This document shows positions 15,995-40,907 of a stretch of 64,000 nt of DNA, one piece after another. The DNA is from an uncultured Gammaproteobacteria bacterium (lineage in GTDB: Bacteria > Patescibacteriota > Microgenomatia > Levybacterales > UBA12049): NCBI GenBank assembly GCA_964497535.1, contig CAZCCG010000002.1, forward strand, positions 104,227 to 168,226, in the 5' to 3' direction. The position numbers and the translations under genes were made by a program. Every line of letters begins with the position of its first letter. The stretch's first letter is position 1. The notes under the pieces were generated by a model. That model did not search any database. It had not been told where the DNA came from and worked only from the letters and a program-made list of their open reading frames with translations.

Positions 15995-16026
15995 GCTAGA
16001 CACACCCGGTGTGTTAGGTAGACACA
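15995..16026 (-). repeat. REP-like palindromic element, copy A (reverse orientation)
   Basis: CTAGACACACCCGGTGTGTTAGGTAGACACAT is the reverse complement of the GATGTGTCTACCTAG-CACACACCGGGTGTGTG unit seen in copies C and D. Confidence 0.6.
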
Positions 16027-16040
16027 TAAGGATTTTATTT

Positions 16041-16712
16041 ATGCCATACAGAAAAGAACCAATTATTGTTAATCAGATCTACCATGTATTTAATAGAAGT
16101 ATTGCCAAACAGCCAATTTTTATTAATACTAGGGATTTTAAACGAATTACGAAACTCATTGATTTTTATAGATACAAGAACCTTCCATTACGTTTTTCTC
16201 ACTTTCAACGTATATCCTATGAGGAAAAAGTGGAAATAAAGAATACATTTATGATTCAAGAAAACCTTTCTATCGATATTCTCTGTTATTGTATAATGCC
16301 AAATCATATCCATTTTTTACTACGAGTAGTCAAATCTCAAGGGATATCTAATTTTATGAGAAATTTACAAAATAGTTATTCAAAATATTTTAATACTAAA
16401 TATCATAGAACAGGTTCTTTATTTCAGGACATGTTTAAAGCCGTCTTAATTGAAACAAATGAACAGTTAATTCATGTTTCAAAATATATCCATTTAAATC
16501 CGGCTACAGCATATATGGTTGAAATCGATAAATTAGAAACTTATGAGTGGTCATCATTTAAAAGTTATCTTGTAAATGATATTAATTCTTTAATTGAAGA
16601 TAGAACAGTTATGAATTTTTTTAGAACAAAAGAAGATTATAAAAGCTTTGTATTAGACCAAGCAACCTACCAAAGAGATCTAGACAATATCAAACATTTA
16701 ATGTTAGAGTGA
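16041..16712 (+). CDS. HUH Y1 transposase, IS200-like / REP-associated tyrosine transposase (RAYT)
   Basis: HuH motif MPNHIHFLL and catalytic Tyr motif KYIHLNP. 223 aa. Flanked by inverted REP-like copies A and B. The ORF-track start at 16011 (a GTG inside the repeat) was replaced by the ATG at 16041. Confidence 0.8.
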   Translation: MPYRKEPIIVNQIYHVFNRSIAKQPIFINTRDFKRITKLIDFYRYKNLPLRFSHFQRISYEEKVEIKNTFMIQENLSIDILCYCIMPNHIHFLLRVVKSQGISNFMRNLQNSYSKYFNTKYHRTGSLFQDMFKAVLIETNEQLIHVSKYIHLNPATAYMVEIDKLETYEWSSFKSYLVNDINSLIEDRTVMNFFRTKEDYKSFVLDQATYQRDLDNIKHLMLE

Positions 16713-16715
16713 ATT

Positions 16716-16775
16716 CCTGATGTGTCTAGCCCTGCCTGCCGGCAGGCAGGTGGCACACAACGGGTGTGTGGAATT
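16716..16775 (+). repeat. REP-like element, copy B, with an embedded GC-rich perfect palindrome
   Basis: CCTGATGTGTCTAG + CCTGCCTGCCGGCAGGCAGG (a perfect 20-nt palindrome) + TGGCACACAACGGGTGTGTGG. Confidence 0.6.
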
Positions 16776-18154
16776 TAGAGGAAGTGGCGGAGGAAGTTGG
16801 CATAGCGTGGATGTCGTAATTTCTCAAAAATTTCTTCTTCTAGCTGCCCGATACGCTGCCGGTTGGTCCCAACCCGTTCTCCTACCTCTTTTCCTGTACG
16901 TTGTATACCATCCTCCAGACCGAGCCGTAATTTCAATACTTCCAAATCTCTTTTGGTCAGAAGACCTGATCCGGGTACATAATCCTCATTCGCTACACTG
17001 TGGTCGTCCAAATAGGTAAGTATTTCATCCAGTGAAACTGAGGATACTGCCTGCTCCTGAGGGAGAGGTTTTTTATCCTTAGCAAATTCCAGCAATGTAA
17101 CACCATTCACATCAAGTGGTATATCAGAAGACACAGTATAGATTTTCTCCGCTTCCTGGATTTGTCTGATTTGTTTCTCTCCAAAAGGAGCACCTTTTCT
17201 GCCAATTAACTCCTCATCAGGTACTTCTCTTCCTTCTTCAATGCTTACTCGAGTACGATATTCATTCCATCGTCTCATTTTAGCGTGCATATGGATTGCT
17301 ATACGAATGGTAGTTCCATGATTATCCCTAAATCGGCTTTGAGCTTGCCGAATCCACCAGGTGGCGTAGGTTGAAAATGCATACCCCTGCCACCGTTCAT
17401 ATAATTCCACTGATTTTATTACCCCCATTGCTCCAACCTGGGTTAACTCCTTATACATGTCGTCTGAAAGATGAAAACGGCCTGCATTTGACATAGCCAG
17501 ACGGACATTGCGCTCAATCAGTTCTTGTTCTCCTCGCTTCCCTGCTGCAATCAGATCAGACAACGCCTCCTCATCGATACTTCCCACACGGATATCGCGC
17601 GTCACAGCAATCCCATCATATATTGGCAGGGGGTCTTTGACAAATTGGCTTTTCTTTTTCTGCTCTGCGAGTTTTGCATCACGTTCCTCCTGTTTTTTCA
17701 CTAATATATACGGAGAAATAAGCTCGGAAAGGGGATATCCCTCTACGCAAACCCCAGCCAGTACGTTGTGTACCTCCTGCTGTGTATAGGGAACTTTTCC
17801 AAAATTGAGTCTATGTCCGGTCAGAATAGTTCTCCCCACAAGCCCAGCCTGCAGAGTCTGAGCAATTCTACCCCGTTCTATTTCCTCACATAGCGCTGAT
17901 TCTATTTCTTTATTCTCCAGCGGACGGATAACATCAGGATGCAACCCATAGACTCCCTGCTTTTCCATAACATATTCCAATTCCTCATGGGAAGCCCCCA
18001 GGTATCCATTTCTATCTCCTCCAATGATTGGAACTGCTTCCTCCAATAGTTCACTCTCCAAGTCATCTAATTGCTCGTAAACTTGATCATCTCCCACCAA
18101 CTCCAATTCAGCAGCATCTTCACGTGGATTTAGAAATTCATTTTCTTGTCTCAT
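16775..18154 (-). CDS. RNA polymerase sigma-70 family factor (RpoD-like, regions 1.2-4 present)
   Basis: Region 2 FSTYATWWIRQAQSRF and IRIAIHM. Region 4 LTKRDLEVLKLRLGL...VGERVGTNRQRIGQLEEEIFEKLRHP. Acidic N-terminal region. GC content is markedly higher than in the flanking genes. Confidence 0.85.
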   Translation of the reverse strand: MRQENEFLNPREDAAELELVGDDQVYEQLDDLESELLEEAVPIIGGDRNGYLGASHEELEYVMEKQGVYGLHPDVIRPLENKEIESALCEEIERGRIAQTLQAGLVGRTILTGHRLNFGKVPYTQQEVHNVLAGVCVEGYPLSELISPYILVKKQEERDAKLAEQKKKSQFVKDPLPIYDGIAVTRDIRVGSIDEEALSDLIAAGKRGEQELIERNVRLAMSNAGRFHLSDDMYKELTQVGAMGVIKSVELYERWQGYAFSTYATWWIRQAQSRFRDNHGTTIRIAIHMHAKMRRWNEYRTRVSIEEGREVPDEELIGRKGAPFGEKQIRQIQEAEKIYTVSSDIPLDVNGVTLLEFAKDKKPLPQEQAVSSVSLDEILTYLDDHSVANEDYVPGSGLLTKRDLEVLKLRLGLEDGIQRTGKEVGERVGTNRQRIGQLEEEIFEKLRHPRYANFLRHFL

Positions 18155-18215
18155 AAAAAATCATGATAACACTTGATTATTGTATTATCAAAATGGTGAT
18201 TAACAATGCTGAGGA

Positions 18216-19517
18216 TTAGACTTTGGTTACATTCATGTGCATGATATGGGGAGCTTCAATAAAATGACGGATCCTTTTGTCATGTATCTCACGGGATACT
18301 CTTTCAGCGTCAACTTCACAAGGGAATACTGTTTCTATCTGGGACCCATCTCCCATGAGGTCTACAATCGTAAAATGGACTTTATCATCTTCATCTATAA
18401 AAAAACTATACATGTCAGTACCAAATTGGTAAAACTTTCCGCTTTGCAAACCTTCAGATATATCGGAAGCTTTAAATGTTCTTAATTGTGTGTAAAATGG
18501 CGGTTCCGGCGTTAACCCTCCATTTTCATGGGATGTAGTAATACGAAACGCTGAATCTGGCGATTGCGGCATTACAATAAAGACAGTATAGTTACCAGCT
18601 TGTTGCATTCTCAGGATATTGGTATCGAGCAAATCCGCAATTGCGCGGGTTACACTTAAATTCTCCAACGAGGCTTGCTCACGGATAGTACAGGTACCCA
18701 AATCTTGCGGTAACATACCAATCGCATGTGAATGAATATAATCGATTAAAATATCCCTATCTTTTTGTTCCATCTCATCATCCACACCGCGTGTCACAAC
18801 ACGTTGTGCAATAGCATACAGGTTTTCAATAATCCTATTTTGGTCCTTAGGCGGAAGCGAGCCAAGTAAGCTGTTTTCATATGCTTCCAATTCGTCCTTT
18901 TCTTCTTCTGCAACTTCCTCATCATCTAATAGAGGATCTGCGTTATCCAGCAAAGCACGAACTCCATAATGGTCATAAAAATGGGCCAAATCCCTGACAT
19001 TTGCAGAAACTTTTCGTCTCAAAAGCACCTGTTGACGTTCATCTGAGGGTAAAGATAATAACTCTGAATCATCCGGTAATGGAGTATCTACATACACACC
19101 AAATTTCTCAAGTTCTCCAAATACCCCATAGACAGCCTGTACGTTCCGCAGTAACTGTCTATGAGGAAGCTTCATGGCAACTGACATCCGTCCCTCGTTA
19201 TCGTACTGTGCTACTTCAACCGGCGGAAGCCCTTCTCGATCATAGGGCGTAAAATAATAGGCAACTTCCTCAAGGCTTTCTAAATCTTCACCATATTGTT
19301 CAAAACGAGTACGGCTTTGTCCGGATTGGGTAAATTCTTCAAGATGCTCTACCGTACCTCTTCTCAAATCAACAATGCAGGTTTTGTCAACATAAGGACC
19401 TTTGTTCCTTAAAACAAATGCTTTTTCTCCTGTTGAGGGATCTACTACTTTCCATTCCCAATCAGAAGGTGTAGAGGGTATACCATTGGGGGGTTGATCT
19501 TCTGGTCCTCGTCCCAT
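18216..19517 (-). CDS. Hypothetical acidic protein (no recognisable domain)
   Basis: Long ORF in the GC-rich segment. The ORF-track start (MLGRHIR...) lies inside REP copy C, so it was trimmed to the ATG giving MGRGPEDQ. Confidence 0.45.
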   Translation of the reverse strand: MGRGPEDQPPNGIPSTPSDWEWKVVDPSTGEKAFVLRNKGPYVDKTCIVDLRRGTVEHLEEFTQSGQSRTRFEQYGEDLESLEEVAYYFTPYDREGLPPVEVAQYDNEGRMSVAMKLPHRQLLRNVQAVYGVFGELEKFGVYVDTPLPDDSELLSLPSDERQQVLLRRKVSANVRDLAHFYDHYGVRALLDNADPLLDDEEVAEEEKDELEAYENSLLGSLPPKDQNRIIENLYAIAQRVVTRGVDDEMEQKDRDILIDYIHSHAIGMLPQDLGTCTIREQASLENLSVTRAIADLLDTNILRMQQAGNYTVFIVMPQSPDSAFRITTSHENGGLTPEPPFYTQLRTFKASDISEGLQSGKFYQFGTDMYSFFIDEDDKVHFTIVDLMGDGSQIETVFPCEVDAERVSREIHDKRIRHFIEAPHIMHMNVTKV

Positions 19518-19599
19518 AAAAATGAATTTTAACACTTTGGTTGAGAAAGGAAAAGCTCCAATAAATTGTGCTATGTAAAGAGAATTTTCAGCAACGCTC

Positions 19600-19637
19600 C
19601 TGATGTGTCTACCTAGCACACACCGGGTGTGTGCAGG
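19600..19637 (+). repeat. REP-like element, copy C
   Basis: CCTGATGTGTCTACCTAGCACACACCGGGTGTGTGCAGG. Confidence 0.6.
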
Positions 19638-19696
19638 TAAATAAAAAGGGGTGCCGCCGACGAATCAGCTGACACCCCACGTGTGTATTGATCAAG

Positions 19697-20167
19697 TTAC
19701 TCTTGACCAGGAAATATATGCAAAGCGTAACCATGCATCGCCTTTACTCGATCACGGGCATGCTCTAACTGCTCTGCATCCGGCTCCGGGAATACCGTCC
19801 GATAACGACCGTATCGCCAGGTAACCCCATGAGAGTCCACGACTATGAACTCATGTGGCTTACCCAGATAACTGGTGTAGCGCCTGGCTGCTCCTAGTAT
19901 AAGGTTAAGCGCTTGCACGAAAGCCAACGCCAAGGCAGGATTCTGGCAGATTTCCTGCTTCTGAGCAAAGTAACGATCGTCAGGAAAATAGGACAAGAGC
20001 TCAAGCGCCCGATCCTGCTCAACCGGAGCATCCGACTCGTGTGCGATAACGCAGATAAGCTCCAATGGTATTTCATTTACCATCTGGAAAACTGCCGCGG
20101 TATCCAACGCCATGGGAACTCCTTCCAATCGCGACTGTGGACTCAATGGTCCAATCCCTCCGTACAA
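19697..20167 (-). CDS. Hypothetical protein, paralog family A (member 1)
   Basis: Shares VxxMVNEIPLELICVIAHESD and a C-terminal W(R/K)YG(G)R...VFP motif with the next ORF. Followed at its 3' end by a GGGTG/CACCC-stem hairpin plus T-run. Confidence 0.5.
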   Translation of the reverse strand: MYGGIGPLSPQSRLEGVPMALDTAAVFQMVNEIPLELICVIAHESDAPVEQDRALELLSYFPDDRYFAQKQEICQNPALALAFVQALNLILGAARRYTSYLGKPHEFIVVDSHGVTWRYGRYRTVFPEPDAEQLEHARDRVKAMHGYALHIFPGQE

Positions 20168-20248
20168 CCGCTGAGATTATATAGTGAAGAGTTAAAGAAG
20201 TCAAAATAAAAGGGTGCCATCGAAGAACGATAACACCCGTATAGTATA

Positions 20249-20686
20249 TTAGCGGAGCCCAGCACCGGCACTGGAAATGATAGCTTTTATGCGTCGTTGC
20301 ATACGAGCTGTATTCTTCTCATCCAACGCAGGAAAGACTGAAACACGTCCTCCATACTTCCAGATTTGGTCACCAACTTGTAGGGTGATCTCATGGGCAT
20401 CCCCGATATAGTTGATGTTTTGCCGTGCATGGTCAAGCCGCCGCATCATCGCGTCGGCGAAAAACTGCATCCCTGACGGGTCTTGAAGAATTGTCTCCTT
20501 CATAGCACTGTAGTGCTCATCCGGAAATAGATCCAAGAGCAACAATGTCTGTGTCGGTGTAATCTCCGTATCTGCCTGGTGGGCTATGATACACACCAAT
20601 TCCAGCGGCATCTCGTTGGCCAGATCATAAGCAGTGCGCAAAATGTGCGGTACCGGCATGACTCTGCTCCTTTCCCAACTATGCAA
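20249..20686 (-). CDS. Hypothetical protein, paralog family A (member 2)
   Basis: Carries the NEMPLELVCIIAHQAD motif, paralogous to 19697-20167. It has its own downstream hairpin terminator. Confidence 0.5.
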   Translation of the reverse strand: MHSWERSRVMPVPHILRTAYDLANEMPLELVCIIAHQADTEITPTQTLLLLDLFPDEHYSAMKETILQDPSGMQFFADAMMRRLDHARQNINYIGDAHEITLQVGDQIWKYGGRVSVFPALDEKNTARMQRRIKAIISSAGAGLR

Positions 20687-20776
20687 TACCGTGGAGATTA
20701 TATAGTGAAGATCTTATGAAGTCAAAAAAAGAGGGTGCCCCGAGTCAGACTCGGAACACCCCATGGATAACGATGA

Positions 20777-21109
20777 TCAAGGAATTTTTGGATTTGAAAG
20801 TTCGAGACGTTGTCGTCTCTCGTAATCTCCAATTAACCTACTAATTGCATGCATCTCCTCCCGGATAGGCTGGAGTGAGCAATCGATTGTCTCCTGATCC
20901 AGGTTACACCTGGCCAGAATGGGCTGTATCTCTCTAACAGCTCCATCAAGCCGCATAAACTCTTGGTAGGCGAGATGGTAATCTTGACCAGACTGAAGCG
21001 ACTGCTCCTTTCTTGTCCGAGACAGCCAGACAATTACGACGACTACCCAGATAGCGCAGAGAACGATGACTACGACTAGCGGGTTGATGAGCCACTCCAA
21101 AGAATACAT
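20777..21109 (-). CDS. Hypothetical N-terminally membrane-anchored protein
   Basis: One N-terminal TM helix (LVVVIVLCAIWVVVVIVWL). GC-rich codon usage matches its neighbours. Confidence 0.4.
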   Translation of the reverse strand: MYSLEWLINPLVVVIVLCAIWVVVVIVWLSRTRKEQSLQSGQDYHLAYQEFMRLDGAVREIQPILARCNLDQETIDCSLQPIREEMHAISRLIGDYERRQRLELSNPKIP

Positions 21110-21125
21110 GATCCCTCCCCTCTCT

Positions 21126-21395
21126 CTAGTCTTCGAGTTTTGTTGTAATCCTGTCGATGATACGATTTACGTAATCGTTCAACTTTTCCCGGTGATGATA
21201 TACCACAGGACCTACTACCACAAAGATCACACCTGTGACAATGGAAGCAAGAAGAAAATGGTTAGTGAAGACTATTGTCAGGAAATGGCCAGCTGCAGTC
21301 CCCAGTAAGACCCCAACCATCAGACATGCAATCCCACCAAAAAGCCCCACGTAGTAACTCTTGACACTGTTTGCGAAGCTGTGGAACTTTTTCAC
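21126..21395 (-). CDS. Small membrane protein (2 TM helices)
   Basis: 89 aa with two hydrophobic helices. Confidence 0.35.
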   Translation of the reverse strand: MKKFHSFANSVKSYYVGLFGGIACLMVGVLLGTAAGHFLTIVFTNHFLLASIVTGVIFVVVGPVVYHHREKLNDYVNRIIDRITTKLED

Positions 21396-21547
21396 CTCAG
21401 TCCCCTTTCAATGTACTCACCACACGGAAAACTCCGCGGGTATTGATTGAGAGTATACACTACTATGAGATAGAAATCAAAGGTGTACAGATAAAAAAAG
21501 CCTCCCCCGCGAAGCGGGAAAGGCCTGGGATGCGCCACACGGCGCGG

Positions 21548-21940
21548 TTAACAGACGAGAACTAAGAAAGCGTGATCCGCCTCCTCACGGCTGGGGAATG
21601 CCTCGATAAGGCGAGTTCCGAGAAACTCAAGATGGCTGAGTTTGCGGGGGTGACCGATTTCCTCGGCGAACATGGACAATCCCCACGACTTGATCGTTGG
21701 CTGGTAAATCGCTACAACCTCAGCAATTCCTTGCCCAGGGTCGCAGACAATCGCCCAGTGGAGCGGGGAATTTTTGATGTCCTCGACCAAGTCGAGGGCG
21801 GCCCCCCAATGACCTGTCTGAAAGACGAACTCCCGACTAGGATGGATTCCGTGCAGGATCTGGAAGAACTCTTCCGAGTAACCTACCAGGATATCCGGCT
21901 CACCGGTCTGCTTATCGGCATAAACCAGGTAAATCATCAC
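21548..21940 (-). CDS. Hypothetical protein
   Basis: 130-aa ORF in the GC-rich, same-strand gene run; no recognised motif. Confidence 0.4.
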   Translation of the reverse strand: MMIYLVYADKQTGEPDILVGYSEEFFQILHGIHPSREFVFQTGHWGAALDLVEDIKNSPLHWAIVCDPGQGIAEVVAIYQPTIKSWGLSMFAEEIGHPRKLSHLEFLGTRLIEAFPSREEADHAFLVLVC

Positions 21941-22269
21941 GTCCTCCTGCTATGGTTTTGCTGAACATCGTGCTCAAGGACTCGCTGCAAGCATCTATTC
22001 CTGCAAGAATTGAAATCCTGCGCCAGGATAAATGTTGTCGGAGCCACCCCACAAAGCAAATCATGAGGGACAGTCATCCACCGGTTGAGACCCTCTATTG
22101 TGGGAAACTGACTCAATAGCCGGATCAAAAACCGGGACGATGCAGGATCCTGCATAAGTTGGCCTATCGCTTCATACACCAAATGTGAGACCTCGTGTCC
22201 TTCATCGAGGTATTCTTGACACCGGCGAGCTGTTTCATAATTGGTATGATCTGACGCAGACATTCCCAA
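21937..22269 (-). CDS. Hypothetical protein
   Basis: 110-aa ORF with an ATGA overlap with the downstream ORF; no recognised motif. Confidence 0.4.
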   Translation of the reverse strand: MGMSASDHTNYETARRCQEYLDEGHEVSHLVYEAIGQLMQDPASSRFLIRLLSQFPTIEGLNRWMTVPHDLLCGVAPTTFILAQDFNSCRNRCLQRVLEHDVQQNHSRRT

Positions 22270-22289
22270 CTCCTTCCATCTCTGGTCGA

Positions 22290-22502
22290 TTATTTCAGTA
22301 CGTCAAAGATGACTATCACAATCATCACTACACACGCAAAAACTAACCCTCCAAATACTGAAATCAAGAACCTCTCCATAGTCTCTCCCTGGGGAGAAGA
22401 ATACGCATAACCAGTCTTGAGCATTGGCATCTTTGGGATAAGCAACCACAGAAATGCTGACCCAAACAACAATGCCACAAGAGATACAGCTACAGATGCC
22501 AT
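22290..22502 (-). CDS. Small membrane protein
   Basis: 70 aa with two hydrophobic segments. Confidence 0.3.
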   Translation of the reverse strand: MASVAVSLVALLFGSAFLWLLIPKMPMLKTGYAYSSPQGETMERFLISVFGGLVFACVVMIVIVIFDVLK

Positions 22503-22697
22503 TTCCCCTCCCTGGAGTGTTGGTTCGCTTGAACGTATTCCAAGCGAGTACCCTTCTATCTACCAAAATAAACAGAATGTCACCCGCTTGGCAAAATCAA
22601 GGTGCAATTTACTCATTTCATGACCAGAAACTGGTGAAAAATGATTGAAGAGATTATAACAAAGGAAGAATACAGAGTCAAACTATAGGATTATGAT

Positions 22698-22724
22698 GGG
22701 CGGTCGAGTCTGACTCGACCGCCC
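22698..22724. terminator. Perfect 12-bp-stem hairpin (GGGCGGTCGAGTC-TGA-CTCGACCGCCC), probable terminator downstream of the SDR gene
   Basis: Perfect inverted repeat directly 3' of the minus-strand FabG-like gene. There is no strong U-tract, so the terminator role is tentative. Confidence 0.35.
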
Positions 22725-22746
22725 AGTAGACTTGCATGTTGGGAAA

Positions 22747-23520
22747 CTATGCCATGACCATGCCGCCATCGACGTGAAGTACCTGTCCAGTAATATATGC
22801 CGCTGCGGGATCAAGGAGCAAGAATGCTACGACTCCAGCTACCTCAACCGAAGTACCAGGACGCCCGATAGGAATCATCGCAAGGATTTGATCTTTCATG
22901 CTCTCAGATACGTTGTCCCACATGGGACTTGGGATGTATCCGGGAGCGACAGCGTTGACTGTAATCCCTCGTTTGGCGTTCTCCAGAGCCGCAGACTTGG
23001 TTAGTCCGATCAAACCAGCTTTGGCTGCTGCATAGTTGGCTTGGCCGGCATTCCCGATCACGCCAACCACCGAGGTGACATTGACGATCCGTCCAAACCT
23101 ACGATGTGCCATCCTTCTGTATTCCCTATTTCCCAAGACCTCCCGGGTACAGAGGAATGCCCCTCGAAGATTGGTAGCCAGCACCGAATCCCAATCAGCC
23201 GGGGGCAGGAATGGGATAAGGTTATCGCGATTGATACCGGCGTTGTTTACCAGGAAATCAATGCGGCCAAACCGATTATATGTCCTGGCAACAAGCCGAA
23301 CCACTTCCGATTCTTTGGCAACATCAGCCTGAAGCGCAATGGTCTCACTACCAGAGAGACGGATTGACCGAGCAACCTTCAACGCCTGGGAACGATCCCG
23401 ATGATAGTGGACTACAACTGAAACTCCTTCTCGTCCCAGTGCCTCTGCAATTGCAGCACCAATCTCTCCGGAAGCTCCGGTAACCAGAGCCACTTTGCCA
23501 ATTCCCCTCTGATCTGCCAT
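22747..23520 (-). CDS. 3-oxoacyl-ACP reductase-like short-chain dehydrogenase/reductase (FabG family)
   Basis: TGASGEIGAAIA Rossmann motif, NNAG, and a catalytic S...YxxxK region (NYAAAKAG). Confidence 0.85.
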   Translation of the reverse strand: MADQRGIGKVALVTGASGEIGAAIAEALGREGVSVVVHYHRDRSQALKVARSIRLSGSETIALQADVAKESEVVRLVARTYNRFGRIDFLVNNAGINRDNLIPFLPPADWDSVLATNLRGAFLCTREVLGNREYRRMAHRRFGRIVNVTSVVGVIGNAGQANYAAAKAGLIGLTKSAALENAKRGITVNAVAPGYIPSPMWDNVSESMKDQILAMIPIGRPGTSVEVAGVVAFLLLDPAAAYITGQVLHVDGGMVMA

Positions 23521-25939: not shown

Positions 25940-26611
25940 TTACTGTCCCTGCCCGCACTGGCGGAAATAGTTGTTGCGGAGCTGCCGCAACCTTGGAAAT
26001 ACAACCATTTTCCACCATGGCGCTGCCGCTGCATCGAGCTGTACGGTGTCCTGAACCCAGGTGAGAAACTCTTCCTCTGATGCGTTCACAGAGAGCTTTC
26101 TTCCCGGTGAAACGAGCGTCGAATCCTCTGCGCCTATGATGCGCAGATTCCATGCTCTCTTCTGCGGATCCTCCTCCATTGTGAAATATATCTGCAGGTA
26201 CTTGGTAGAGGAAAGGGGTTGAATCAGAGTCGTGGTAGCCTCGCCGTAATTTCCCCCGGGGATTGGCATGGGCCACACTCCGGATATAGTTCCCGGCGGC
26301 ATATACGGTGCTACTTCCAGTCCCGCCAACAACGCGGCCTTGAGTTGCCGTTGTGCAGCAGAGGTGGCTGTGGGGATACCATTTTCCCCAACGGAGAAGT
26401 AGATGTCCAGACAAATGTCGCGGGAGTTATCCCACAACTCAATGAGCTGGAAGTGTACCTCCACTTCTTCCACAGACACCTGGATCCGCTCGTCTGAAAA
26501 AGCTATCGAGACTGCGGTCCTCCACTCCCGACACGCTTGCTCCCTAATGTCATGATGGGCCATGAAGTACCGGTACAAGTCGGGCAAACACTTCGCGATG
26601 ATACGCGGCAT
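25940..26611 (-). CDS. Hypothetical protein (GC-rich segment)
   Basis: 223-aa ORF with ordinary amino-acid composition. The overlapping alternative-frame ORF 25806-26414 is R/G-rich and was judged spurious. A hairpin plus T-run lies 3' of it at about 25875-25920. Confidence 0.45.
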   Translation of the reverse strand: MPRIIAKCLPDLYRYFMAHHDIREQACREWRTAVSIAFSDERIQVSVEEVEVHFQLIELWDNSRDICLDIYFSVGENGIPTATSAAQRQLKAALLAGLEVAPYMPPGTISGVWPMPIPGGNYGEATTTLIQPLSSTKYLQIYFTMEEDPQKRAWNLRIIGAEDSTLVSPGRKLSVNASEEEFLTWVQDTVQLDAAAAPWWKMVVFPRLRQLRNNYFRQCGQGQ

Positions 26612-26845: not shown

Positions 26846-26875
26846 TTGACAAAGGCTATGGGCTCATGATATAGT
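26846..26875 (+). promoter_or_regulatory. Sigma-70-type promoter with extended -10 (TTGACA-18-TGaTATAGT)
   Basis: TTGACA at 26846-26851, TG at 26867-68 and TATAGT at 26870-75. Confidence 0.45.
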
Positions 26876-26954
26876 AATCTCATGAACAAAGCACAGCAAT
26901 TAAATAGAAGACCAATAACTTCCTAACGGGGAGGTATTTGTCGTGTGTACAAAA

Positions 26955-26974
26955 CTCCCCCTGGGAGTTTTTTT
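26955..26974 (+). terminator. Intrinsic terminator hairpin (CTCCC-CCT-GGGAG + T7) in the leader upstream of the paralog-B pair; an upstream GGGGAG could form an alternative pairing
   Basis: Stem-loop followed by TTTTTTT about 80 nt downstream of the predicted promoter and about 110 nt upstream of the ATG at 27083. GGGGAG at 26927-26932 could alternatively pair with CTCCCC. Confidence 0.4.
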
Positions 26975-27082
26975 GTTGTGGAAAAGCACCTTAAAACTTA
27001 TAGGAGGCAGTGACCTCAGGAAGATTATAAGTCTTTCTGCGGGTGCTGCTTACCTATACTATAGCAGCGCCGGGAGAGGTAG

Positions 27083-27736
27083 ATGGACGACCGTTCCTAT
27101 GCGAGAGTACATGTTCATGGAGACAAATCTATGGAAGGAGACAAAGTATCACTGGTGAGTACCTCACCCCTTGGGCCCCGCCTCGAAACCAACATCGGGT
27201 ACTGTCCCTTTGTACGCGAGGTTGAATACTGCGCCTTCTTTGGACAAGTACCGTTGGGTGAATACTATTTGGTATATACCACACAAACCGGTATCCACCA
27301 GATCGATACGGCTTTGGAAGCTTTTATCGATCTGCCGAAGTTCCGGCTGGATACCGCTCGTGTGGTACCGGTAGTACCTTTCTCCGCCGAAAAAGACCTC
27401 GTAAAGGCAATGCGTGAAGCACAACAAGACCTCATGCATTGTCTTGTGTTGTCTCCGAGCATCAAGTATGGAGTACTTTGGTACGCTCGCAGTGTACTTA
27501 CGTCTCGATTGGCTCAAGCTGAAAAAGAGTTGGAGCGTCGGGGAAAGCAACAACTGGGAGGTTTGACAACCGAGCAACAGAGAGGCCTGCAGGAACTCTC
27601 CGAATGTGTTCTGCGGAGTATGAAAACCTTGGAGCTCCATAGCGCACTTGACTTCTACCGATTGCTTTCGATCCTCTGTAACGAAAGTACTACGGTAGCC
27701 AAAGTTATGCGGATAATCTATCCTGCACTCCGCTGA
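27083..27736 (+). CDS. Hypothetical protein, paralog family B (member 1)
   Basis: Shares SLVSTSPLGP, ELERRGKQQLGGLTTEQQ and DFYRLLSIL with the next ORF. Confidence 0.55.
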   Translation: MDDRSYARVHVHGDKSMEGDKVSLVSTSPLGPRLETNIGYCPFVREVEYCAFFGQVPLGEYYLVYTTQTGIHQIDTALEAFIDLPKFRLDTARVVPVVPFSAEKDLVKAMREAQQDLMHCLVLSPSIKYGVLWYARSVLTSRLAQAEKELERRGKQQLGGLTTEQQRGLQELSECVLRSMKTLELHSALDFYRLLSILCNESTTVAKVMRIIYPALR

Positions 27737-27750
27737 GAAGTACACACCGA

Positions 27751-28467
27751 GTGTATGCAAACACTAGAAGCACTGGAGGAGAAATGGACGAACATTGGGC
27801 AAGTGTGTGGGGCAAAACCTACAAAGATGAGGTAGTTGTACACGTTGGAAGAGGAATGAAAGGAGCCCGTATTTCGCTCGTCAGCACTAATCCGCTTGGG
27901 CCGCATCTCCACGCATACGTTGAGCAATTCGGTTCTCTGAGAGGAGAAGGAGGAGGGTTTGGCGCCGTCTTTGAGAACGTACCCGCCGGCGAGTACTGGG
28001 TTGTTGGGATGCACTTGGGACACTGCATCATTGAGGCAGGAGTAGATGCCAAACTTCTACCTGGGGATATCCCGGATAACATCGTACTGCTAGATCCCGG
28101 ATACCAGGATTCTCATCTGCGTAAGGCCATCTCCGCTGCATGTAACAACCTCAAGAAACTTACCGGCGTCTCCTGGGGTATGAAATATGCAGCACTGTTG
28201 TATACTCGCAGGCAGTTTGCACCCGAGATGAGTGCAGCTGAAAAGATCCTCGAACGGCGGGGCAAGAACCATCTTGCCGGTCTCACAACAGAGCAAGAGA
28301 AGATACTCGGTATTATTTCCCAAACTGTTGTGGAGAATATGACAGAGCTTGGGCTGTGTCGGGCAATCGATTTCTATCGGTTGCTCTCGCTTCTTTACAA
28401 AGGAAGGAAAGACAGCGCCAAAATCCTGGAGATGCTTCATCCGAATCAAGGTAATTCGGTGGAGTAA
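27751..28467 (+). CDS. Hypothetical protein, paralog family B (member 2)
   Basis: Tandem paralog of 27083-27736 (SLVSTNPLGP, ILERRGKNHLAGLTTEQE, DFYRLLSLL). An imperfect hairpin plus T-run follows at about 28473-28516. Confidence 0.55.
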   Translation: MYANTRSTGGEMDEHWASVWGKTYKDEVVVHVGRGMKGARISLVSTNPLGPHLHAYVEQFGSLRGEGGGFGAVFENVPAGEYWVVGMHLGHCIIEAGVDAKLLPGDIPDNIVLLDPGYQDSHLRKAISAACNNLKKLTGVSWGMKYAALLYTRRQFAPEMSAAEKILERRGKNHLAGLTTEQEKILGIISQTVVENMTELGLCRAIDFYRLLSLLYKGRKDSAKILEMLHPNQGNSVE

Positions 28468-28524
28468 AACCATCATGCCCGGTTTCCCATTCGTGGGGAG
28501 CCGGGCTCTTTTTATGGGATAATC

Positions 28525-28560
28525 CCGATGTGTCTACCTACCACACACCGGGTGTGTGTA
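28525..28560 (+). repeat. REP-like element, copy D (abuts tRNA-Val 3' end)
   Basis: CCCGATGTGTCTACCTACCACACACCGGGTGTGTGTA. Confidence 0.6.
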
Positions 28561-28568
28561 AAAAGGAG

Positions 28569-28640
28569 TGGACCCGAGAGGATTCGAACCCCTGACATCT
28601 GCAATGTGAATGCAGCGCTCTACCACTGAGCTACGAGTCC
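28569..28640 (-). tRNA. tRNA-Val (anticodon CAC)
   Basis: Cloverleaf by eye: acceptor GGACTCG/CGGGTCC, D-arm GCTC-AGTGGTA-GAGC, anticodon arm CTGCA-TTCACAT-TGCAG, T-arm with TTCGAAT loop. No encoded CCA. Confidence 0.85.
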
Positions 28641-40396: not shown

Positions 40397-40885
40397 ATGC
40401 ATAAAGTAATACTGGCACTGGGATCAAATGTTGGGAATAAACAGGAAAATATTAGCAAAGCTGTTGATTCATTACACATCCTATTGGAAGATATTCATGT
40501 TGCGAATTTGTATCGTTCACATGCTGTTGGATTTACCGAGCAGGATGATTTCATAAATACGGCAGTGAGGGGATATACTAATCTATCTCCTCAAGAGTTA
40601 TTGGAGAGAATAAAAAAACTCGAAAAAAAACTGGGAAGGAAAAAGAGATTCCGTTGGGGACCACGAGAAATAGACATTGATATTATTTTTTATGATGATC
40701 AAATAATTCAGACAGAACTGTTGGAACTACCCCACCCCAGAATGCATGAGCGGGATTTTGTCCTCCAACCATTAACAGATCTCCAGCCACAGTTACTCCA
40801 TCCGGTTTTGAATAAAACAGTCCAAACTCTTTTGGAAGAACTACCGCCGGAGTCTCATTCAATCGTGGAAAAACTCTACAGCTAG
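40397..40885 (+). CDS. folK: 6-hydroxymethyl-7,8-dihydropterin pyrophosphokinase
   Basis: [10 protein letters not shown] start, [12 protein letters not shown] and [14 protein letters not shown] motifs. Confidence 0.85.
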
Positions 40886-40907
40886 ACACATCCGGTGTGT
40901 GCTACAA
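40882..40907 (-). repeat. REP-like element, copy E (short form, reverse orientation) between folK and folE
   Basis: GCTAGACACATCCGGTGTGTGCTAC; it overlaps the folK stop codon. Confidence 0.5.

Follow-up and report, generated by a model that had tools for sequence, protein, structure and literature searches.

We analyzed a 64,000-nucleotide stretch of DNA from an uncultured bacterium (contig CAZCCG010000002.1, positions 104,227 to 168,226 of the forward strand; hereafter the window), and we describe here a short RNA leader that precedes two adjacent paralogous genes on its plus strand. The first gene, paralog A, occupies positions 27083 to 27736 and encodes 217 amino acids; its Shine-Dalgarno (SD) sequence, GGGAGAGG, stands at 27072-27079. 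The second gene, paralog B, occupies 27784 to 28467 and encodes 227 amino acids, with the SD sequence GGAGGAG at 27775-27781, 5 nt before the ATG. An alternative GTG start at 27751 would give a product of 238 amino acids, the size listed for paralog B in an earlier note on this DNA. This start is less likely, because a strong SD sequence precedes the ATG at 27784 and the public gene call, P0002, has 227 amino acids; the size of 217 that the same note gave for paralog A agrees with ours. The two proteins are 37% identical over 209 residues (E 3e-37), and the motifs that had been quoted as common to the pair are seen in their alignment. The paralogs are real coding genes, and the operon ends in a terminator at 28477-28516 (+), which consists of a 13-bp stem followed by TCTTTTT.

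Upstream of paralog A lies a sigma-70-type promoter (26846-26875, +). It consists of the -35 box TTGACA at 26846-26851, an 18-nt spacer, and the extended -10 element TGaTATAGT at 26867-26875, in which TG occupies 26867-26868 and the hexamer TATAGT 26870-26875. This promoter matches 11 of the 12 consensus positions in addition to the TG, and it is the top-scoring site within the 4 kb from 25.5 to 29.5 kb. It is followed by an open reading frame (ORF) of 14 codons (26882-26926, +), which starts with ATG at 26882, ends with TAA at 26924-26926 and would encode the peptide MNKAQQLNRRPITS. Because the ATG is placed only 6 nt past the -10 box, the mRNA is probably leaderless. The ORF contains the tandem arginine codons AGA AGA at 26906-26911, that is, 15-18 nt before the stop codon.

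The leader RNA has four segments that can pair with one another. Segment 1 is ACUUCC, the last two sense codons of the leader ORF; segment 2 begins with GGGGAG, 1 nt past the UAA; segment 3 ends with CUCCCC; and segment 4 is GGGAGU, which is followed by U7. Segments 1 and 2 form an anti-antiterminator hairpin at 26917-26935 (+), in which AACUUCC pairs with GGGGAGGU and the stop codon of the leader ORF lies in the loop. Segments 2 and 3 form an antiterminator helix at 26928-26960 (+; GGGGAG..UUUGU with ACAAA.CUCCCC), in which GGGGAG at 26928-26933 pairs with CTCCCC at 26955-26960 and the pairing is prolonged inward by UUUGU/ACAAA. The stability of this helix is -12.3 kcal/mol (z -2.5 against shuffled sequences). 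Segments 3 and 4 form an intrinsic terminator at 26951-26974 (+), of which AAAACTCCC-CCT-GGGAGTTTT occupies 26951-26971; it has a 9-bp stem, the loop CCU and a T7 run at 26968-26974. The extended -10 promoter, the terminator hairpin with its T7 run and the alternative pairing of GGGGAG with CTCCCC had all been pointed out in the earlier note, and all of them are borne out by our analysis.

When 1.84 billion representatives were searched exhaustively with an HMMER profile, one true relative of the paralogs emerged, P0003 (224 amino acids, E 2.7e-12), which is encoded on an independent metagenome contig (L004) and is the sole outside homolog of the pair. P0003 shares only 26-28% identity with the paralogs, yet the 250 nt that precede its gene align with the window at the DNA level. 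The similarity begins exactly at the -35 box, from which conservation extends over the entire block as far as the gene; the upstream neighbor in L004 shows no relationship to the divergent 223-amino-acid gene of the window. The promoter of L004, TTGACA-17-TGtTATAGT, has the same arrangement as that of the window, and L004 also has a mini-ORF, four pairing segments, a terminator and a second long stem-loop ahead of the SD sequence. The two loci share the identical 15-mer AACTTCCTAACGGGG and the terminator arm GGGAGTTTTTTTGT.

A scan of metagenomes with a pattern made of the core and the terminator arm returned eight loci, two of which, L010 and L012, are real. A pattern scan of genomes returned only L015, which is equal to L012, and scans of viral sequences for the leader pattern gave nothing real. 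In L010, the cassette follows greA and immediately precedes an orphan gene that is unrelated to the paralogs; for the protein of this gene, searches gave neither homologs nor a Pfam or NCBIfam family, and no relative in the PDB. In L012 and L015, the order is rplT, the cassette, an ORF of 69 amino acids, and pheS-pheT. Orphan genes follow three of the four cassettes, namely those of the window, L004 and L010. In L012 (3636-4022, corresponding to about 6718-7100 of L015), the promoter lies inside the 3' end of rplT. The 69-amino-acid ORF at 3792-4001 of L012, before pheS, is unannotated, and it has a strong SD sequence and no family match.

The four leaders agree in many respects. Their in-frame leader ORFs have 14 codons in the window and L012 and 15 codons in L004 and L010, so that the length differences are multiples of three, and the -10 box and the ATG are 7 nt apart in L010 and 6 nt apart in the other three. 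All four ORFs end with ACU UCC UAA (Thr-Ser-stop), and the stop codon always lies in the loop of hairpin 1:2, the 14-nt core of which, ACTTCCTAACGGGG, is identical in all four. The peptides of L004, L010 and L012 would be MQKEIVITNSRRTTS, MYIRNSFDSKKKTTS (ending SKKKTTS) and MKLKNVFYLAYFTS, respectively. Segment 2 starts 1 nt past the UAA, except in L012, where the distance is 5 nt. The terminator stem has 7-9 bp and is followed by U5-U7 in every leader, and the equivalent 2:3 helices of L004, L010 and L012, with 10-12 bp, have z values of -3.2 to -5.4. The conserved leader ORF, which the earlier reader missed, is the decisive feature of this element.

The specificity of the arrangement was examined by two kinds of scan. 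In the first, a hit had to combine four elements: a terminator, a preceding segment with complementarity to the 5' arm of the terminator, a short ORF whose end immediately preceded this segment, and a -10 box spaced as for a leaderless transcript. The window contains 58 terminator-like hairpins, and only the present locus qualified; among the other retrieved loci, the same scan gave family members only. In the second, a covariance model (R1) scored the four leaders at 69-81 bits and found no further copy above noise across 161 kb. Another conserved hairpin, GCCCCGUUGGGAGCGCAG...CUGCAUUCCUAACGGGGC followed by a U-run, was noticed on three metagenome contigs, at L005 10690-10760, L009 160-230 and L011 2590-2655. 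It contains the UUCCUAACGGGG string, as the leaders do, without the leader ORF architecture, its R1 score is noise, and it looks like an unrelated terminator.

We then folded each of the four leaders with the bases covered by a simulated ribosome masked. With no ribosome, all four folded into a terminator-competent form, and with the A-site at the stop codon, which masks segments 1 and 2, all four formed the 3:4 terminator. When the A-site was set 3-5 codons before the stop, segment 1 alone was masked, the 2:3 antiterminator formed, and GGGAGU-U7 was left unpaired, again in the four leaders. In isolation, the minimum free energy structure of segments 1 through 4 is a single long hairpin before the U-tract, in which 1:4 encloses 2:3 (z -2.7 to -5.1). 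That is, the leader alone folds into a terminator-competent hairpin, and thus only a ribosome parked on segment 1 prevents termination. The 2:3 helices and the whole elements exceed shuffled sequences in stability, with overall z values of -2.5 to -5.4. The anatomy of the leader, its conservation and its energetic switch are what the analysis shows.

Because all four leaders have a conserved ORF of 14-15 codons that ends within the loop of the 1:2 hairpin, we think that the leader is probably a ribosome-mediated transcription attenuator of the trp/pheST type, with a leaderless leader-peptide ORF, which governs the two-gene paralog operon. The proposed mechanism is as follows. The leader ORF would be translated without a 5' untranslated region (UTR), from the first base of the transcript. 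A ribosome that reaches the UAA would cover segments 1 and 2, the 3:4 terminator would form, and a transcript of about 93 nt would be released. With no ribosome, the RNA would adopt either 1:2 together with 3:4 or 1:4 together with 2:3; both of these pair segment 4 before the U-tract, and transcription would end. A ribosome stalled 3-5 codons before the stop would cover segment 1, so that segments 2 and 3 could pair, segment 4 would stay single-stranded, and transcription would read through into paralogs A and B.

Several points weigh against this interpretation. The 2:3 helix of the window is the weakest of the four, and with the A-site at codon -4 its equilibrium fold still favors the terminator. 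In a fixed-column, model-fitted alignment of the four leaders, no pair was changed on both sides, the shuffle controls matched this result, and most pairs were invariant; 87% of the cells were paired, compared to 48-72% when the partners were slid. Support for the structure thus comes from conservation, energetics and geometry and not from covariation. The earlier note had advised folding the leader and looking for covariation in homologous leaders; the alternative structures proved to be conserved, but covariation was not significant with four sequences. In addition, the pattern that brought up L010 and L012 already required the conserved core; the identity of the core across the leaders is therefore partly due to ascertainment, and there are only four distinct examples. 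Finally, the transcription start is placed at or beside the A of ATG 26882 solely from the -10 spacing, and translation of the leader ORF is inferred.

A second stem-loop lies between the attenuator and the SD sequence of paralog A, at 27005-27051 (+) in the 5' UTR. It has 18 bp and is conserved with L004 (about 424-472). The consensus fold of the window and L004 contains 18 pairs, of which two show compensatory changes, and the single-sequence z-scores are -3.3 and -2.95. This type of stem-loop is absent from L010 and L012; it is specific to the paralog gene family. It suggests a second level of control, which may be translational or may involve binding of a protein. Its 3' arm, GGUGCUGCU, can pair instead with AGCAGCGCC just before the SD sequence.

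In a different explanation, the leader acts purely as an RNA switch, with a metabolite, a protein or a tRNA as its ligand, and the short ORF is incidental; the second stem-loop could then be a binding site. The strong conservation of the hairpin core and the presence of alternative pairings would be in keeping with a switch of this kind. However, what is conserved is a simple hairpin, with a loop of 4 nt and no multi-helix junction, that overlaps the end of the ORF. An ATG at the spacing of a start site, frame-preserving length differences and a fixed stop codon in four leaders are not expected if the ORF is untranslated. A search of the window and the related loci against Rfam, at gathering and at permissive thresholds, gave no leader or riboswitch family at threshold and only tRNA matches; the closest leader model was Phe_leader (RF01859), with 23.2 bits against a gathering score of 55. 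We therefore regard the RNA-only switch as very unlikely. The earlier note had spoken of an attenuator or a riboswitch-like leader, and the attenuator layout, conserved in homologous leaders, is the part that stood; the riboswitch part did not, the core being a single hairpin without an Rfam match.

Another explanation is that the promoter and the terminator bound an independent small RNA of about 93 nt, a gene for a 14-amino-acid micropeptide, or both, and that the paralogs are expressed separately. The promoter is strong and the terminator looks efficient, and both terminated attenuator transcripts and leader peptides are able to work in trans, for example rnTrpL and peTrpL (PMC6614838, PMC7298713). 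However, the promoter scan found no promoter-like site on the plus strand between the terminator and the ATG at 27083, that is, no second promoter before paralog A, and the paralog genes thus depend on read-through. In L010 and L012, the downstream gene begins about 15-20 nt from the terminator and must therefore be expressed by read-through, and in L004 the unit travels with a gene of the paralog family. The small RNA of about 90 nt that had been offered as an alternative in the earlier note is therefore not the best fit, and we consider it the least likely of the explanations.

If the leader is a ribosome-mediated attenuator, the codons in the stalling zone should indicate its signal. In the window these codons are AGA AGA CCA AUA (Arg Arg Pro Ile), in L004 they encode Arg-Arg-Thr, in L010 Lys-Lys-Lys-Thr, and in L012, before pheST, Tyr-Phe. 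From the Arg-Arg-Pro-Ile stretch, we propose the charging of tRNA-Arg as the signal; that is, a shortage of charged tRNA-Arg would induce read-through in the window. The L012 case, in which Phe and Tyr codons precede pheST, fits amino-acid sensing, and by analogy arginine is proposed for the window. We put this forward tentatively, as a possibility that we doubt more than we trust. Two arginine codons are a minimal sensor, the paralogs are not poor in arginine (7.4% and 4.8%, compared to a background of 3.3%), and they have no known link to arginine. Amino-acid specificity is unproven, given that three of the four cassettes stand ahead of orphan genes.

A serious rival to arginine sensing is a non-specific stalling sensor. 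That is, the same ribosome-dependent attenuator may be triggered by general stalling, such as translation stress, a ribosome-targeting antibiotic, or arrest by the nascent peptide or a ligand at the basic RRP, RRT or KKK stretch. The leaders of resistance and stress genes work in this manner. The orphan genes behind three of the four cassettes, which have no metabolic link, the basic cluster near the end of three of the four leader peptides, and the fact that the regulated paralogs are not depleted in arginine would all agree with a trigger of this kind. In contrast, the L012 leader, which is located where pheST would have its attenuator, has Phe and Tyr codons but no basic cluster, and the leader peptides are otherwise unconserved, unlike known arrest peptides. 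Taken together, we think that general stalling is a rather unlikely trigger.

Returning to amino-acid sensing, a broader proposal can be made. The leader may be a portable, sequence-conserved cassette of uncultured low-GC bacteria, in which the sensor codons are swapped (Arg-Arg, Lys-Lys-Lys, or Phe/Tyr) so that unrelated and mostly orphan genes come under individual amino-acid supplies; the paralog pair with its extra UTR stem-loop would then be an unrecognised arginine-starvation response module. We consider this proposal speculative and unlikely as a whole. If the arginine reading is true, limitation of arginine or tRNA-Arg would be a testable condition for the expression of an orphan protein family, and the attenuator design would turn out to be reused beyond biosynthetic operons, in the form of a swappable cassette. 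If it is wrong, the finding remains a clean, ordinary attenuator annotation.

The proteins that would be controlled in this way are rare: genes of the paralog family were found in only two organisms among the approximately 15 billion public proteins represented by the searches. A word-indexed search of 5.8 billion clusters gave nothing beyond the two paralogs themselves, and neither protein has a match in Pfam, NCBIfam, PHROG or PADLOC. The HMMER search that gave P0003 also returned a repeat protein, P0004, whose SdrD-B/CnaB-like repeats match the paralog motif F.NVPAGEY.VV. An AlphaFold model of a paralog, built from a three-sequence alignment, has a predicted local distance difference test (pLDDT) score of 63, with strands over residues 6-96 and six helices over residues 101-212. 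This low-confidence model suggests an N-terminal beta-sandwich and a C-terminal helical domain. CnaB, SdrD-B and CarboxypepD_reg-like beta-sandwich domains were considered for the N-terminal half. In Foldseek, the model gave only weak, generic beta-sandwich matches in the PDB (CBM41, CnaB2 and FN3, E about 0.01), and a PDB sequence search with the paralogs was empty. The earlier statement that the proteins have no recognisable domain is thus right at the sequence level, where no family matched, and the predicted two-domain fold is what the recommended search for remote homology and structure added to it, beside the single relative. Since no signal peptide or transmembrane stretch is evident on reading the sequences, the paralogs may be cytoplasmic.

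The locus lies inside a block of about 50% G+C (25.9-28.56 kb) in a window with a background of about 37% G+C, and the block adjoins the gene for tRNA-Val(CAC) at 28568-28640 on the minus strand. Ordinary housekeeping genes flank it: a HAD hydrolase, a UPF0020-type methyltransferase and a PQ-loop protein on one side, and a signal peptidase, ParB, L27, L21, a RodA/FtsW-like protein and isoleucyl-tRNA synthetase (IleRS) on the other. Back-to-back with the leader promoter there is a promoter-like site on the minus strand, TTGTCA at 26852-47, a 16-nt spacer and TATAGT at 26830-25, which overlaps the leader -35 box (26846-51) and faces the divergent 223-amino-acid orphan gene (25940-26611). The product of this gene has no similarity to the paralogs, and its AlphaFold model is unusable (pLDDT 49).

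We also considered whether the locus belongs to a mobile element. A prophage or defence island was rejected, since PHROG and PADLOC were empty for the paralogs and their neighbours, a sigma factor excepted. An integrative island that targets tRNA-Val and is bounded by a 36-nt repeat (19598/28523) was also rejected, since a scan of the neighbouring ORFs (about 16-29 kb) turned up no integrase. Nor is this repeat an island border: it sits outside the tRNA-Val gene and belongs to a family of REP-like hairpins, CACACACCGGGTGTGTG. Members of this family occur in the window at 15999-16015, 16754-16770, 19598-19633, 28523-28558 and 40885-40901. Two copies (19598/28523) share 36 nt at 94% identity, and one of them separates the terminator of the paralog operon from tRNA-Val. 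A transposase gene of the IS200/Y1 type (RayT-like) at 16011-16712 (+; Pfam Y1_Tnp, E 2.9e-12) has a copy on either side.

A second tandem pair of orphan paralogs was observed at 19697-20167 (-) and 20249-20686 (-), with 37% identity (E 1e-28), in another G+C-rich block. A 52-nt repeat stands before each gene of this pair (20167-20218 and 20688-20739, with copies 85% identical) and reads TTGACT-N17-TATAAT on the minus strand. The block, 16775-23520, has 45-53% G+C compared to the background of about 37%. It encodes a sigma-70 family protein with an N-terminal extension of about 200 amino acids (16775-18154), an orphan protein of 467 amino acids and small orphan ORFs. In Pfam and PHROG, matches within the block were obtained only for the sigma factor and for an SDR/FabG-like reductase at its far end (22747-23520).

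Regulation of amino-acid operons and of pheST by leader-peptide attenuators is textbook knowledge, and we compared the present leader with known examples. As checked in the annotated genome, trpL of Escherichia coli ends with ...TGG TGG CGC ACT TCC TGA AAC GGG. Like trpL, the window leader has an ORF of 14 codons in which two tandem sensor codons, near -5, stand 4-6 codons ahead of the stop. In each case the ORF closes with Thr-Ser-stop, ACU UCC serves as segment 1, the loop of hairpin 1:2 contains the stop codon, and a 2:3 antiterminator is accompanied by a 3:4 terminator and its U-run. The differences are that the sensor codons of the window are for Arg and not Trp, that its ORF is probably leaderless and has no SD sequence, and that the element is far more compact, with about 93 nt. 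The genes behind it are orphan paralogs and not a biosynthetic operon. The Rfam search gave no Trp_leader match, and because no Rfam leader model reached its threshold, the resemblance to trpL is architectural, with homology not demonstrated.

E. coli pheM, which was checked in the same manner, lies between rplT and pheS and has the design GGAGGCU/AGCCUCC/GGAGGCU-U7. The L012/L015 leader stands in the same rplT-pheS interval, has a 14-codon ORF with Phe and Tyr codons, and uses a 2:3:4 design of the GGAG/CUCC type. In contrast, L012 has just two Phe codons, the 69-amino-acid ORF separates its attenuator from pheS, and pheM has its own SD sequence. The copy in the window lies elsewhere than pheST and has no Phe codon.

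Attenuators with leaderless sensory short ORFs are known in Actinobacteria, namely the mycobacterial poly-Cys leaders and the ilvBNC and trp leaders of Corynebacterium (bioRxiv 10.1101/834739; PMC11857589; PMC1262725). In these systems, the short ORF stands at the 5' end of the transcript and codon-specific stalling remodels the downstream RNA, as we propose for the window. However, the mycobacterial Cys ORFs act via sequestration of the ribosome-binding site, whereas the output in the window would be an intrinsic terminator; moreover, the host of the window is a low-GC uncultured bacterium and the cargo consists of orphan genes.

With regard to arginine, the orf34/SpeFL leader of Salmonella speF senses this amino acid with two consecutive Arg codons, through ribosome pausing and RNA refolding (PMC6386406). 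The adjacent pair of Arg codons is a common feature, and the orf34 core, HIRRT.H, may be compared with SRRTTS of L004, with no sequence relationship shown. In contrast to the window leader, orf34 is 34 codons long, exerts its effect via Rho and RNase G, and senses ornithine too.

In conclusion, the leader described here is probably an uncatalogued addition, absent from Rfam, to the well-known class of leader-peptide attenuators. Within this class, the window leader would be notable for its probably leaderless mini-ORF, its candidate Arg-Arg sensor and its orphan cargo.

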